Origin: Escherichia coli
Lineage (GTDB): Bacteria > Pseudomonadota > Gammaproteobacteria > Enterobacterales > Enterobacteriaceae
Length of the DNA: 64,000 nt
Assembly (NCBI RefSeq): GCF_041248615.1
Contig: NZ_CP158426.1
Reading direction: 5' to 3' (one strand)
Shown: positions 21,001-30,000 of the stretch, piece after piece
Numbering within the stretch: position 1 is the stretch's first letter
How the letters are laid out: each line of letters starts with the position of its first letter
Program-made: the position numbers

Positions 21001-24000
21001 CGTTAATTAATGATGTCAGTATGTGGGCGCTATCCTTGTATGTAAAATCCACTGACGATTACGCCCATCTGTGAAAAAAAACTCACAATGCCATTCGATG
21101 CATCTCCATACTGAACGAGGCGTTATCGTCTTTATCGCCCCGTAGTGGATATCAGAAAATCAATCAGGGCCTTCACTCTTTTCGTTTTACCCGCGTTTTT
21201 GGGGTAATAGAGATACACTGGCGGGTAGGTTTTCCAGTATCTCTCCATCACCGGAATAAAGCGCTCCCTGTCCGGCTGTAACTGCCAGACAGGCTCAAAC
21301 AAGCGCCCAATTCCCAGCCCGTTACGGATCCCGTCTGCCATAACGTCAATATCGTTGCTGATTAACTGCCCCGGCATCTCAACGGTCAACTGCTCACCGC
21401 GATCGTTCAGGAGCAGCGGAAGGATGCGGTTGTTGGTGATAAAACGGTAACCAATCAGCTGGTGATGACAGAGATCTGCCGGCACTTCAGGCGTTCCATG
21501 TCGGGAGAGATACGCTGAGGATGCATATAATCCTTCACGAAACGGTTTCATTAACGGTCGGGCCACCACCCCTCCCTCAAGAATATCGCCAAAACGGATC
21601 CCCAGATCAAAACGCTCTTTGATGATATTCACGGTACCGTCGTAGACCGAAATTTCTAACTGTATACCCGGATATTGCTGACAGAATTCTGCCATCGCAG
21701 GCTTAAGAATTAACAGGTAGGCAAAACGCGAGAGCGTAATTCGCACCATCCCAGAGGGCTCCTGATGCTGGTCGCGAATGCTTTCAAGTGAGTTTTCCAG
21801 CGACTCCACCGCCGCAGCGGTCTGTTCCAGCAATAATTGACCGGTTTCCGTCAGCTCTATACGGCGGGTCGTACGCACAAAAAGCGGATGGCCGATATAC
21901 TCTTCCAGCAGCTTTAGTGCATTGCTGACGGAGGGAGGCGTAATTTCCAGTTTCCTTGCGGCTGCCGAAATATTGCCCTCCCGCGCAATGCTCTGGAAGA
22001 TGCGAATCTGGTTATAAAGAGCGTTATTCATAATGTTTTCCTAAGCAATTCTCGCCTGATTATTAAGTACAGTCTAAAAATGCTTAAGTCAATGACCCTC
22101 TAATCTTCCTGAAATACGCCTCTTATACTTTAGTCTCTTTCTACTACGACCTGAGTTCAGGAGACTATGATGCGAATTTTATGTCTGGATATCCCTGCCC
22201 CTGGAGCATCGCTGGAGAAATATGCTCCGCACCTCAACGCTGAAGCGCTGCACGCCTGGGGATTGTATAAATCAGGCTTCATCCGCGACATCTACTTCCG
22301 TCAGGACAGACCTGGCGTCGCTATTTTTCTTGAATGTGACTCTGTCGATGAAGCGATGAACGTTATGGCCGAATTCCCGTTGGCAAAAGCAGGCTTACTA
22401 AGCTTCGAGTGTATACCGCTTGGCTCCTTTATTAACTGGGAAAATCTCTTCGCCGATGAATTTAAAAATAAAGAGTGAGGACCGATATGAAACCTGCATA
22501 TAAACCAGTGCTATGTGTCGTTTCCAGCCATCCGATTAAAGGCGCATCCGGTGTACCAACCGGTTTTTTCCTGGCCGAGCTGACTCATCCGCTGAAAGTA
22601 CTGGAAGATGCCGGAATAAAAACAACAATAGCCAGTATTCGCGGGGGGCAGCCACCGGTGGATGGATTTGACCTCAGCGACCCTGTTAACGCCTGGTACT
22701 GGAACGAAACCGATTTTCAGCAGCGCCTGGCAACAACACCTGCGTTATCCGAGCTGAAAGGTGCCGATTACAGCGCAGTTTTCTTTGCAGGTGGTCATGG
22801 GACCATGTGGGATTTCCGTGATAATCAGGATGCCCAGCGTATTATCCGCGAAGTGTATGAAAGTGATGGGATTGTCTCAGCCGTCTGCCACGGGCCTGCG
22901 GCATTGGTTGACGCAAAACTCAGTAGCGGCGAATACCTGATAAAAGGGAAAAATGTGGCGGCCTTTACCAACAAGGAAGAGGAAGAAGTTCACACAACAG
23001 ATGTGGTTCCCTTCCTGCTTGAAACCGCACTTCGCGAGCATGGTGCGCTTTATCATGAAGCTCCAAACTGGTCTGAAAACGTGGTTACCGACGATCGCCT
23101 TATCACGGGGCAGAAGAATCCCGCTTCAGCACATGGGGTTGGTGTGGCGCTGTTAAATGCACTCCGCCGGACAGCTTAATTAATTCATCGTTACTCACCT
23201 TACTTGGCCGGTTTAAGTCAGCCACGATCCGGCCTTTTTTCAGGAGCTGAATATGAAAACACTACCTCCAGTCGCACTAGGTACATGGTCCTGGGGCACA
23301 GGCTTTGCCGGCGGCGACACCGTCTTTGGTAATCATCTTTCTGATACTCAGATGGCAGAAGTGTTCACTGCGGCCATGAGTAAGGGCCTCAATCTCTGGG
23401 ATACCGCAGCAGTATATGATATGGGGAGTTCCGAGACTGCGCTGGGAGCATTAGTCCGTCAGTTTCCCCGCGAGAACATAATTTTATCCACCAAATTCAC
23501 GCCGCAGATTGCGGACAAGCAGTCTGCGCAGCCTGTCAGCGATATGCTTGAGGCCAGCCTTGGGCGCCTGGGCGTGGACGCGATTGATATCTACTGGATC
23601 CATAATCCCCTCGACGTCGAAAAATGGACACCAGGACTGATCCCACTTTTACAAAGCGGTAAGGTAAAACGCGTAGGTGTTTCCAACCACAATCTGGCAC
23701 AAATCAGACGCGCCAATGAAATCCTTAACGCTTCCGGTTATTCCCTCAGTGCAGTACAAAATCACTACAGCCTGCTCTATCGCGCTTCTGAAGAGGCCGG
23801 GATCCTTGATTATTGCCGACAAAATAACATCACGTTCTTTGCTTACATGGTCCTGGAGCAAGGCGCGCTCAGTGGTCGTTATGATTCAAATCATCCCATG
23901 CCTGCCGGGAGTGGCCGGGCCGAAAGTTATAACGCAGTACTGCCGCAGATAGAAAGACTAACCGCCGCCATGAAAAAAATGGGAGCCGAAAGGAATGCCA

Positions 24001-27000: not shown

Positions 27001-30000
27001 ATGAAAATGAGCGTGCTTATCGCAAACATCTCAATGCCGCCCCATACAAAGCATTCGCTGCTCGTGCAGCTGACATTATTGACAGGAAGAAGAAAATTAC
27101 CCTGGAGCCACAGTTTCTGGGCGACAAACACATCATACCGAATGAACGAACTATCAATAATCTGGTGATCGTCGAAGTAAAGCCTGAATTTCAGAGCGAA
27201 TTTAGAAACATCGTCCTTCCTGAAATGGTCGAGTCGCTCAAAGTAGAGAAAGGCGTGTTAGCCATGTATGCCGGTACAGATTCAGAGACTCCAAAACGCT
27301 GGTATTTCTATGAGATTTACGCCAGTGAGGAGGATTATCAACTGCACCGACAAACGCTGCACTTCCTGGATTACCTCAGGCAAACGGCGCATATGAGCGC
27401 CAGGAAGGACGCAATCCCGGTAAAACCGGTATTTCTTCGTAACAAAGGCGGAATCAAACAGGAGCCGCAACGTTGACCAGTAAGGATTAACATGAAAAGC
27501 GTACTTGCAGCAGCGGCTATGTCGCTTGTTATTTCTGATTTTGCCAATGCTGAGGAAACAAGAGGTAAAGCTATGATGAAAATAGAACCGTCAGCGATTT
27601 CGGAAGCTGATATTCGTTCCGTCTCACCGGCTCTCGCGCGCTTTGGTCGCGAAGCTATTACTGAAGATCTGTGGACACGCGACGCCCTCTCACCGAGGGA
27701 TCGTAGTGTGGTGACCGTCGCCATGCTGATTGCCCGCAACCAGCCTGCCGAGCTTAAGCACTATATTGACGTCGCTCTCGATAGCGGCGTGACGCCAGCG
27801 GAATTATCAGAAATCATTACCCATCTGGCGTTCTACTCAGGTTGGCCAAATGCAATGTCAGCCGTCAGCGTGACCAAAGCAGTATTTGAAACTCGTGGCG
27901 TCACGGCAGATGCACTTCCTGAAGCTTCTCCGGACCTGCTTCCTCTCAATCAGGAAGCAGAAAAGCAGCGTTCAGAGACAGTGGAAAAAAATGTTGGCCC
28001 AATATCTCCAGGCCTGGTTAAATTCACTGCTGATCCACTCTTCCTGGATCTCTGGCAAAGACCCGCGCTGAAACCCCGCGACAGAAGCCTGATTACGGTC
28101 AGCGCCTTAATCGCATCCGGACAGAGCGCGCAGATTGGCTATCACCTCAATAGAGCAATGGATAATGGACTTTCTGTTGAGGAAGCTGGTGAGATCGTTA
28201 CCCAGGCCGCCTTCTATGCTGGCTGGCCAAACGCATTTACCGCTGCTCCGGTTGTGGGAGAGGTGCTAAACAATCGATCATCGAGTAAAAGGTAACATTA
28301 CTGAACACTAAAACCTGACGCACATCACAAAATTAGAACGATCAGTTCATGAACCAACAGACGTGACATCGAGTGATTTATGGACAGCGTTTAACACAGT
28401 TATGAACCAAAACTGAGTTCATAACTGTGAGTTTGAATCGCCATTTGATTAATATCCATTTAAAACAGTTTGTTATACTGTTTCTGGTGCTGTCGTAAAT
28501 TATGTATATTCCTCAAACCCAGAATAGTTAAATGGAATTTGAGTGATGCGAAGCGATTTTCCAGTCGTCGTTATTACTTCAGGGTTCCAGAACATAAAGC
28601 CTCTCCTCTTTCATAATTGGCCTGTGCATACCGGATATAGGCTGGCAGGTTTGCCGTTTGCCGCATCTTCCCTGCGTTGAAGAGTCAGGCTGGCAAACCA
28701 CACACCCTCTTTCCATCAACACTTCAGACAGCTTGCGGGAATGAGTTCACTCCGGTATCAGAAATGGCTACGCCTCAATGAAGCCAGGCGACTGATGCTG
28801 AATGAACATTACGATGTCACCACTGCAGCCTATGCTGTCGGTTACGAAAGCTTATCCCATTTCAGTCGGGAATATTCGCGGATGTTTGGAGAGTCACCTA
28901 AGAGAGATATTACCAGGTTAAGAAAGTCTGTCGGTCAGCTTTAATAAACCCTGCACTTATCTGTTTAGAGCAATTCCGTGTTAGTTACACTAGGCAAACA
29001 TTAACCATAGCTAATGTTTTATAGCCATATAAGCCATTGGTCGCTCTTGACCTTTCCTGACACTTCCCTTGTTCGCAATAATATTCTGTTTAGTCGCTGT
29101 TTATAAATATCATGCATAATGAAATCGTCATGTTATTTAGCGACATAAAATGTTTTTGCAAATACTCTCTACAACAAGTGCTGCAATAAACTTGTTGTGA
29201 TTAGGTGTCCTTGTAATTTAAAGATATTATCGTTCTTCGTGAAATGTAATAACCCTGGAAACTATATTCTCAGGGCAACAACCAATTAAGAATGATTCTT
29301 GTTTTATAAGCAATAACAGAATGACTTAATTGTTAACTCTCTTTATTCAGCTACTTAAATATAAATTTTGGAGAATTATGAAACTCAAACATGTCGGTAT
29401 GATTGTCGTTTCTGTGTTGGCGATGTCGTCTGCTGCGGTAAGCGCAGCCGAGGGAGATGAATCAGTAACGACCACTGTTAATGGCGGTGTTATTCATTTT
29501 AAAGGTGAAGTGGTAAATGCCGCTTGTGCGATTGATTCAGAATCAATGAACCAAACGGTTGAGCTGGGTCAGGTCCGTTCTTCTCGTCTGGCTAAAGCGG
29601 GTGACCTCAGCTCCGCCGTTGGCTTCAATATCAAGCTGAATGATTGTGATACCAATGTTTCCAGTAATGCAGCTGTTGCATTCCTGGGTACTACTGTCAC
29701 CAGTAATGACGATACCTTAGCGCTGCAGAGTTCAGCGGCTGGCTCTGCCCAAAATGTCGGTATTCAAATTTTGGACCGTACGGGGGAGGTATTAATACTT
29801 GATGGTGCCACTTTTAGCGCTAAAACCGACTTGATTGATGGCACGAATATACTGCCATTCCAGGCTCGTTATATTGCTCTCGGGCAGTCAGTAGCTGGTA
29901 CTGCAAACGCTGATGCGACCTTCAAAGTTCAATATCTATAATTCAATCTTAAGATGGCTATACGTCATCTGAAATTGAAACAGGGTGTGTGTTGCATGGC

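Follow-up and report, generated by a model that had tools for sequence, protein, structure and literature searches.

A partly decayed, putatively LysR-controlled redox cluster on a recombinase-less island downstream of hipA in Escherichia coli

Downstream of hipA in an Escherichia coli chromosome lies what is probably a horizontally acquired and partly decayed gene cluster under LysR control, carried on an island without a recombinase gene and directed at defence against quinones, phenolics and reactive carbonyls. The stretch of DNA analysed (the window) comprises 64,000 nucleotides of contig NZ_CP158426.1 from RefSeq assembly GCF_041248615.1, and the cluster lies between hipA and a remnant of the AraC-type gene yneL. 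Taken as a whole, this reading has in our judgement rather better than even chances of being correct; the function taken alone, an inducible defence against membrane-permeant quinones, phenolics and reactive carbonyls, would stand slightly below even. A preliminary description of this DNA had proposed a divergent LysR regulator over a co-oriented, accessory redox cluster, and the predicted arrangement is supported by the analysis.

In a two-state alignment, homology to E. coli K-12 breaks off at position 20838 of the window and picks up at 28527, the two parts overlapping by a 7-bp sequence, GTTAAAT, that is present once at each border in the window and as a single copy in K-12. The extra DNA relative to K-12 amounts to 7,695 bp (20839-28533). 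K-12 represents the empty site, with about 0.3 kb between hipA and the yneL remnant, not the 1 kb or so given earlier. At least 80% of the segment is found in 428-429 of 5,426 complete E. coli genomes (about 8%), almost always on the chromosome and at 98.3-100% identity, which bears out the proposal that the cluster is strain-variable. The window itself matches the chromosome of E. coli NRZ14408 at 100% identity, and RefSeq gives the same genes generic names there. All nine open reading frames (ORFs) of the preliminary description were recovered at its coordinates (Table 1), and its family assignments all agree with Pfam searches of the concatenated proteins. Two of the gene junctions that it listed, 25613/25616 and 27476/27492, match RefSeq (NRZ14408), whereas the third, an overlap at 22475/22478, requires a GTG start for the DJ-1 gene. 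RefSeq takes the ATG at 22487, and the alignment with the nearest solved homologue begins at residue 10; a gap of 8 nt between the first two genes is therefore likely.

Relatives of the cluster extend well beyond E. coli. With the tandem-ABM protein as query, a scan that took one genome for each species recovered 26 loci. The same gene order is present in Rahnella rivi (90-92% DNA identity), Candidatus Pantoea deserta (88-90%), Pectobacterium peruviense (83-84%) and Raoultella, and, minus the second aldo-keto reductase, in Serratia plymuthica and Serratia inhibens; 214-kb plasmids of Enterobacter mori carry the cluster at 91% identity. The homology with these relatives runs from lysR to the CMD gene only and does not include the ends of the E. 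coli island. Synonymous divergence (dS) from Rahnella or Enterobacter is about 0.25-0.35, which we judge to be much lower than vertical descent between these genera would give, and the pooled ratio of nonsynonymous to synonymous change (pN/pS) is 0.12-0.14, as expected of intact genes under purifying selection. A smaller core, consisting of LysR, the Flavodoxin_2 reductase, an aldo-keto reductase and the secreted tandem-ABM protein, recurs in Neisseria, Pasteurellaceae, Rahnella and Buttiauxella.

Several of these loci deserve a separate mention. One E. mori plasmid, NZ_CP119171.1 (locus L035, 9001-19405), comes from a plant isolate and carries a complete 10-gene version, with an insert of about 2 kb containing a helix-turn-helix gene between lysR and the gene for the 103-residue protein; its neighbours are aldo-keto reductase, SMP-30, SDR, alkene-reductase, LysR and TetR genes. 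In Streptococcus orisratti (L026, 9013-10636), the gene for a tandem-ABM homologue that lacks a signal peptide directly follows an ORF with an N-terminus that, judged by eye, resembles Amidohydro_2. If this likeness is true, the association of amidohydrolase and ABM protein reaches the Gram-positives. Within E. coli, comparison of the window with strain 118UI (L033) gives a dS of 0.13 for the CMD gene, 0.06 for the reductase gene, and 0 for the second aldo-keto reductase and ABM genes. This mosaic pattern of sequence divergence indicates recombination between cluster alleles.

Control by the LysR protein is suggested by a sequence element that was derived from alignments, over all loci, of the lysR spacer and of the DNA that precedes the reductase gene. 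The element conserved across loci is ATT[A/G]TTA[A/G]-N7-[C/T]TAA, which contains T-N11-A and has the form ATTATTAR-N7-CTAA in the window. It is followed by a TATACT-like hexamer, which lies at an offset of 65 nt in 21 of the 23 promoter regions and of 64 nt in those of Neisseria and Glaesserella. In the window the element occurs exactly twice (boxes 1 and 2 in Table 1), and no extra match appears even when one mismatch is allowed. The related loci, 442 kb in total, contain 23 matches, nearly all of them either within the lysR spacer or in front of the reductase gene, compared to 0-2 in shuffled sequences. With the transcription start taken about 7 nt past the predicted -10 hexamer, the box centre is placed at about -66; this is the textbook position for the recognition site of a LysR-type transcriptional regulator (LTTR), which lies at about -65 of the target promoter (PMC2724274).

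These observations suggest that the cluster consists of two LysR-dependent units. LysR would bind the two T-N11-A box copies, each near -66 of a TATACT promoter. At box 1, in the divergent spacer, binding would repress lysR and activate unit 1, predicted to comprise a 103-residue barrel protein, an Hsp31-class DJ-1 protein, an aldo-keto reductase and a dead amidohydrolase related to hydroxybenzoate decarboxylases. Binding at box 2 would activate unit 2, with a flavin-dependent quinone reductase resembling KefF and NQO1, a second aldo-keto reductase, a periplasmic tandem-ABM protein and a periplasmic tandem protein of PcaC-like CMD domains. In Rahnella bonaserana, R. bruchi and Buttiauxella, lysR stands directly beside the reductase gene, with a promoter of the box 2 type. 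In Erwinia rhapontici (L012, 9042-9277), pieces of the genes for the 103-residue and DJ-1 proteins, fused to each other, lie in the spacer that separates lysR from the reductase gene; thus, the reduced cluster arose by deletion of unit 1 and is not the ancestral form.

A division of the cluster in the gap at 24891-25040 had been suggested before, on account of a hairpin. The division probably holds, since the gap contains the second predicted operator and promoter, with box 2 and its -10 hexamer. The hairpin does not contribute to it: 138 of 200 shuffled sequences fold at least as well (z = 0.51), and a scan found no terminator-like site in the gap. Similarly, the dyad TTAAG-N16-CTTAA reported for the divergent spacer at 22063-22088 does not represent the conserved element. 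Its arms lie at 22063-22067 and 22083-22087 and are separated by 15 nt, a spacing of 16 giving a direct repeat instead; the left arm overlaps box 1, and the dyad as such is not conserved. The right arm falls in a conserved AAGTC/GAGTC stretch and may be part of the activation site.

The first gene of unit 1 encodes a protein for which sequence searches are of little help. It has no Pfam or NCBIfam match (at E values of up to 10, NCBIfam gave chance-level matches only), and neither the single sequence nor a profile found anything significant among PDB sequences, the profile returning only TftG at E = 0.081. The AlphaFold2 model has a predicted local distance difference test score of 93.7, and its top Foldseek matches are ClcF (chloromuconolactone isomerase), TftG (hydroxyhydroquinone dehydrochlorinase) and muconolactone isomerase, with template-modelling scores of about 0.65-0.72 and E = 1e-5 to 9e-4. 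The family is compact, with about 65% identity across Proteobacteria, Myxococcota and Acidobacteria and 20 invariant positions. In many genera NCBI and UniRef call it 'superoxide dismutase'; no Pfam or NCBIfam model backs this name, and a literature search for its basis found nothing relevant. The label should be treated with caution, having no detectable basis.

The other proteins of the cluster belong to well-populated families. The nearest solved relatives of the DJ-1 protein are 4p5p and 1u9c, both uncharacterised, followed by yeast Hsp31 and the glyoxalase III Glx3 of Candida. Its score against the HchA model is 62.1 bits (cut-off 365), and the nucleophile-elbow cysteine with the adjacent histidine is present. 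The two aldo-keto reductases score 118.3 and 123.4 bits against the YdjG methylglyoxal-reductase model, for which the cut-off is 550; both keep the catalytic D-Y-K-H residues and resemble IolS-type and other members of the family. They are generic members of the aldo-keto reductase superfamily. Among solved structures, the reductase that opens unit 2 is nearest to KefF, general stress protein 14, NAD(P)H-FMN oxidoreductase, NQO1/NQO2 and MdaB. It scores 145.2 bits against the KefF model, below the cut-off of 210, and no kefC gene is present in the cluster.

The last two proteins of unit 2 had been described as secreted, and both have predicted Sec-type N-termini (MKKTFMLLICMLISSPVFA, cleaved before T, in the ABM protein; MKSVLAAAAMSLVISDFANA, cleaved before EE, in the CMD protein), which are kept in homologues; solved ABM and CMD homologues align only from residue 25-28 on. 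A lipoprotein reading of the ABM protein, based on Cys residue 10, was rejected, as LLIC is a poor lipobox and a VFA/T signal-peptidase I site follows. RefSeq names this protein 'putative quinol monooxygenase'. Its closest solved homologues are 3mcs and 3f44, and that of the tandem-CMD protein is 4g9q (2e-73), all of them uncharacterised structural-genomics entries. The CMD protein has a PcaC-type sequence pattern and scores 115.3 bits against the PcaC model TIGR02425 (cut-off 155.7); it is a tandem fusion with a signal peptide, and no pca genes are adjacent. It contains no cysteine in 267 residues and AhpD-type CxxC chemistry is therefore impossible, which rules out an AhpD-like peroxidase and leaves peroxide unsupported among the stresses that the cluster had been proposed to counter.

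The quinone and carbonyl part of that earlier proposal fits the protein families well: a reductase of the KefF/NQO1/MdaB kind, two aldo-keto reductases with D-Y-K-H, and an Hsp31-class DJ-1 protein with a Cys-His motif. Quinones and carbonyls would undergo reduction in the cytoplasm, with the products going on to barrel enzymes in the periplasm that need no cofactor. A role in defence is put forward because the cluster has no transporter and several NAD(P)H-dependent reductases, its ancestor encoded a phenolic-acid decarboxylase, and many carriers are plant-associated. Some of the same facts can be read differently. The cluster might be the remnant of a nutritional pathway for a plant phenolic acid, in which a hydroxybenzoate was first decarboxylated and a hydroquinone or lactone then processed. 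The ancestral amidohydrolase has its nearest relatives in LigW and in gamma-resorcylate, 2,3-dihydroxybenzoate and salicylate decarboxylases, the 103-residue protein shares the fold of muconolactone isomerase, ClcF and TftG in its model, the CMD protein is PcaC-like, and the carriers include many plant-associated genera and a plasmid copy from a plant isolate. However, the cluster lacks a ring-cleavage dioxygenase, cycloisomerase, enol-lactonase, CoA-transferase and transporter at every locus examined, and the decarboxylase is the gene most often lost, whereas the reductases and barrel proteins are under purifying selection. The core conserved in distant taxa consists of the reductase, an aldo-keto reductase and the ABM protein, and the PcaC-like and ABM proteins are predicted to be exported, whereas the beta-ketoadipate enzymes are cytoplasmic. 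The catabolic origin is thus weaker than the defence role, and we consider it improbable.

The E. coli copy is not complete. The full version, found in Rahnella rivi FC061912-K and on the E. mori LgD10 plasmid at about 91% DNA identity, has ten effector genes. In the interval between the second aldo-keto reductase and ABM genes it contains a gene for a secreted DUF1330 protein and a second Flavodoxin_2 gene, whose product has an RR-containing N-terminus. In E. coli a deletion of about 950 bp at 26649 removed the DUF1330 gene and left only the tail of the flavodoxin gene. The 'shortened amidohydrolase-2' of the preliminary description turns out to be a dead gene. The Pfam match covers only model positions 147-289 of 289; residues 51-168 or so were deleted in E. 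coli with a frameshift, and the annotation in most carriers consists of two or three gene fragments or shows an internal stop. In the window, 91 bp more are missing at 24442/24443, which happens to join the frames into an ORF of 200 residues. This fused junction occurs in 2 of 5,426 genomes, and the split form in about 462. The full-length protein, for which 3nur is among the nearest solved structures together with the decarboxylases named above, has the N-terminal motif EEH, which we take from gamma-resorcylate decarboxylase to be a metal-ligand motif; the window has EEN. The sequence comparison indicates that the E. coli copy derives from a 10-gene ancestor through internal deletion of the amidohydrolase and loss of the DUF1330 and periplasmic Flavodoxin_2 genes. 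The same three genes have been lost in differing combinations across genera. The lost flavodoxins (L007, 9382-9981; L015, 9372-9971) have RR-containing, Tat-like N-termini (RQRRAAALF and DRRTFVKG), which suggests export of a folded flavoprotein, unusual for this fold. As a matter of annotation, the 200-residue 'amidohydrolase family protein', like comparable entries in hundreds of RefSeq genomes, is a fragment of a dead gene and should be read with caution.

Such decay raises the question of whether the cluster still does anything in E. coli. It could be a functionless, decaying hitch-hiker, kept through its recent arrival in a successful lineage: there are three deletions relative to the complete version and further independent lesions in the amidohydrolase remnant, several genomes carry partial-deletion variants, and substitutions within E. 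coli are few, with a pN/pS of 0.36 in the closest pair. Against this, new lesions gather in the already broken gene alone, the carriers examined have kept the remaining eight ORFs intact, and at least 80% of the cluster is found at high identity in the roughly 429 genomes noted above. The pooled pN/pS within E. coli is 0.17 for more divergent pairs, and both LysR boxes and both -10 hexamers have been retained. We rate this explanation as low as the catabolic one, and continue to favour an inducible defence cluster as the more probable interpretation.

The ends of the segment provide evidence on how it came to lie downstream of hipA. E. coli PCP06173 has a 40.8-kb island after the same GTTAAAT. 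Its 5' genes encode, in order, a 359-residue integrase, a 556-residue integrase, and hypothetical proteins of 845 and 167 residues, and its further cargo includes a type I restriction-modification system, mrk fimbriae, Hachiman and other defence-type genes. The left end of the segment in the window corresponds to the first 66 bp of this island (Table 1), and 28286-28533 is 73% identical to its last 248 bp, the terminal 40 nt or so being nearly identical. The right end has a G+C content of about 0.42-0.46, in keeping with a short, poorly conserved, AT-rich 3' end, and the two termini carry an 8-bp inverted repeat with arms TGGGTTTG (20843-20850) and CAAACCCA (28514-28521). On a contig of Enterobacter sichuanensis the cluster and right end are 92% identical to the window, and the homology stops exactly at 28533, with unrelated DNA beyond. 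The attB-like sequence GCGCATAATGTATATTATGTTAAAT recurs in E. mori, where this left end and a piece of the ABM gene come after it. It is very improbable that the segment is ancestral chromosomal DNA which K-12 and most E. coli lost by a single microhomology deletion between the GTTAAAT copies: a 7-bp direct repeat is the expected leftover of a slipped or illegitimate deletion, the segment has no recombinase gene and its G+C content (about 0.44-0.53) is unremarkable, but the same two terminal sequences bound a different, recombinase-bearing cargo of 40.8 kb at the same site, the same right end adjoins unrelated DNA in Enterobacter sichuanensis, the ends carry an inverted repeat, and at about 90% identity the cluster also occurs, without these ends, in other genera and on a plasmid.

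The segment itself carries no machinery for movement. Searches of the window with the four module proteins of the PCP06173 island (tblastn) gave no match, the window has no ORFs of this kind, and the segment contains no integrase, transposase or tRNA gene. The absence of an integrase beside the cluster, which had been stated before, holds for the window; the conclusion drawn from it, that the segment is not a classical mobile island, is misleading, since it has defined ends and repeats and shares these ends with a recombinase-bearing island. An Rfam scan of 19000-30000 for an RNA gene at the attachment site gave one sub-threshold chance match only. In Rahnella, Pantoea, Pectobacterium, Serratia and the other loci no recombinase gene was found within 10 kb of the cluster, and in those genomes it is not visibly framed by this island type.

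The gene order and sizes of the PCP06173 module fit the gin operon of the islands known as GInts. These islands have a 5' ginABCD recombinase operon (three tyrosine-recombinase-like genes and a small gene), cargo, a short AT-rich 3' end and imperfect repeats (PMC5385486, PMC10214605). All four gin genes are needed for movement and mutants can be complemented in trans (PMC5385486); GInts are reported to be frequent in Pectobacterium, Pantoea and Escherichia (PMC10214605). The two PCP06173 recombinases match Pfam Phage_integrase below threshold (E = 0.18 and 0.44), and the sole NCBIfam match of the 556-residue protein is integrase_1, at 85.9 bits, below the cut-off of 350 bits. E. coli accessions and the hipA site are not among the entries listed in the GInt supplementary tables. 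The window element lacks any gin-like gene and with it the feature that defines a GInt, and the segment is best described as a recombinase-less relative or deletion derivative.

The GTTAAAT site downstream of hipA (attB, 20806-20838 of the window) is an integration hotspot. PCP06173 (L032, 1-46001) has two tandem islands there, the second of which starts with two more integrases, and the site takes islands of very different cargo, defence systems included. It is tempting to speculate that the 7.7-kb segment is a non-autonomous member of the GInt type, moved in trans by recombinase-bearing islands at the same attB, and that the 103-residue barrel protein represents a new family of enzymes whose substrates are of the hydroquinone or lactone type; we regard this as unlikely, if somewhat less so than the catabolic and hitch-hiker explanations. 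If mobilisation in trans were true, it would explain how a LysR-controlled module responding to quinones and phenolics reached the chromosomes of Escherichia and Enterobacter. In any case, a recombinase-less island with intact ends could be used for testing trans-mobilisation of GInt-type elements.

Several points weigh against the interpretation of a LysR-controlled defence cluster on a GInt-related island. The box pattern was derived from the same sequences in which it was then counted, and the statistic for the window by itself is weak, as 12 of 100 shuffled sequences give two or more matches at one mismatch. There is no obvious -35 hexamer at P1 or P2; a missing -35 hexamer is usual for activator-dependent promoters. 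A scan of 20700-28700 for consensus promoters and terminators missed both P1 and P2, with total counts at or below the shuffle means, and its only match in the gap (24891-24918) lies upstream of box 2 and is distinct from the conserved hexamer. None of the enzymes reaches the NCBIfam equivalog cut-off for the named family nearest to it, so that no substrate can be transferred from these families. The three lesions in the E. coli copy could mean that the module does not work there as a whole. The assignment of the PCP06173 module to the GInts is based on gene order and annotation alone, and literature searches on this gene combination and on a hipA/yneL island found nothing relevant.

Table 1. 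Positions in the window of the cluster genes, gene remnants, predicted control sites and island ends
Feature	Position	Strand	Remarks
GTTAAAT, left direct-repeat copy (attL core)	20832-20838	.	K-12 homology ends here
Island left end	20839-20904	+	About 92% identical to left end of the 40.8-kb PCP06173 island
LysR-type regulator, 299 aa	21132-22031	-	Pfam HTH_1 7.7e-21, LysR_substrate 5.3e-25
LysR box 1 (predicted), ATTATTAAGTACAGTCTAA, T-N11-A	22059-22077	+	28 nt from lysR start codon; centre about -66 of predicted P1
TATACT, predicted -10 of P1	22124-22129	+	65 nt downstream of box 1 start
Protein of 102/103 aa, unnamed family	22170-22478	+	Muconolactone-isomerase/YciI-like dimeric alpha+beta-barrel fold (model)
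Hsp31-class DJ-1/PfpI protein	22487-23179	+	Cys-His motif AVCHGP; alternative GTG start at 22475
Aldo-keto reductase 1, 315 aa	23253-24200	+	Pfam Aldo_ket_red
Dead remnant of 349-aa Amidohydro_2 decarboxylase-like gene	24288-24890	+	About 452 bp missing at 24442/24443
LysR box 2 (predicted), ATTATTAGTTTTTGTCTAA, T-N11-A	24933-24951	+	In gap before reductase gene, upstream of unit 2
TATACT, predicted -10 of P2	24998-25003	+	65 nt downstream of box 2 start
Flavodoxin_2 NAD(P)H quinone-reductase-like protein, 190 aa	25041-25613	+	Pfam
Aldo-keto reductase 2, 339 aa	25616-26635	+	Pfam Aldo_ket_red
3' tail (27 codons and stop) of lost periplasmic Flavodoxin_2 gene	26648-26731	+	E. coli remnant
Tandem-ABM protein, predicted secreted, 241 aa from GTG start	26751-27476	+	Two Pfam ABM domains
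Tandem-CMD (PcaC-like) protein, predicted secreted, 267 aa	27492-28295	+	Two Pfam CMD domains
Island right end, AT-rich	28296-28533	+	Right GTTAAAT copy at 28527-28533

The DNA on either side of the island is also variable. Many carriers, for example E. coli WCHEC4533 (L030, 24909-28379), have hipA reduced to its N-terminal domain, and in this type of left flank a SIR2-family gene and the remnant of an ISNCY transposase lie between hipA and the island left end. Identity to K-12 is 96.6% to the left of the island in the window and 99.6% beyond 32481, and only 85% in 28527-29199, which includes the yneL remnant at 28687-28944. This suggests that the right flank, judged by its divergence, is a different allele that is linked to the island and was possibly imported. 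The adjoining stretch, 29199-32481, is absent in K-12 and contains a fimA-like gene, a chaperone gene and the 5' part of an usher gene; the fimbrial operon is complete in the window, and ydeT of K-12 is what remains of it in truncated form. Upstream of hipBA, an autotransporter of 1,806 residues belonging to the ECSE_1600 family (13514-18934) is intact in the window and annotated as frameshifted in K-12 and PCP06173.

Viewed as a whole, the cluster is an accessory detoxification-type set with predicted LTTR control on a degenerate site-specific island, and does not constitute a new kind of system. It overturns no current understanding and represents a well-behaved case of accessory-genome flux. 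What was an anonymous accessory block becomes a defined unit, with one regulator, two predicted operator/promoter pairs, seven intact effector genes and two gene wrecks.

Like a GInt, the window element appears to have been inserted site-specifically between short direct repeats and has a poorly conserved AT-rich 3' end, and the sister island at the same attB begins with two integrases, a large hypothetical and a small hypothetical protein; unlike a GInt, the window element has no ginABCD operon. Three protein families of the ancestral cluster belong to the superfamilies of aromatic-acid decarboxylases and beta-ketoadipate enzymes (LigW, muconolactone isomerase and PcaC). They differ in that all of them score below equivalog cut-offs and the pathway has gaps; the PcaC-like protein is a fusion of tandem domains predicted to be secreted, and the decarboxylase is dead in E. 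coli.

The combination of a flavodoxin-fold reductase with an ABM quinol monooxygenase is reminiscent of the MdaB-YgiN pair of E. coli K-12, which Adams and Jia reportedly described in 2005 as a 'quinone redox cycle'. The pairing of a Flavodoxin_2 reductase with an ABM fold recurs across distant taxa in the recovered loci. In the window, however, the ABM protein is a fused tandem with a signal peptide, which would place it in another compartment than the cytoplasmic reductase.

One of the closest characterised precedents is CrgA of Neisseria meningitidis, which represses itself and activates the divergent quinone-reductase gene mdaB after exposure to electrophiles (PMC2724274). The window differs in having two boxes and two multi-gene units, with nine further genes or remnants, some of them for proteins predicted to be exported; its reductase is closer to KefF and GSP14 than to MdaB, which is still a recognisable relative (E = 1e-14). 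In both systems an LTTR gene faces a gene for a flavodoxin-fold protein of the quinone-reductase type, with T-N11-A sites in the control region, and among solved structures CrgA (3HHG) ranks second in similarity to the LysR protein of the window (E = 6e-28).

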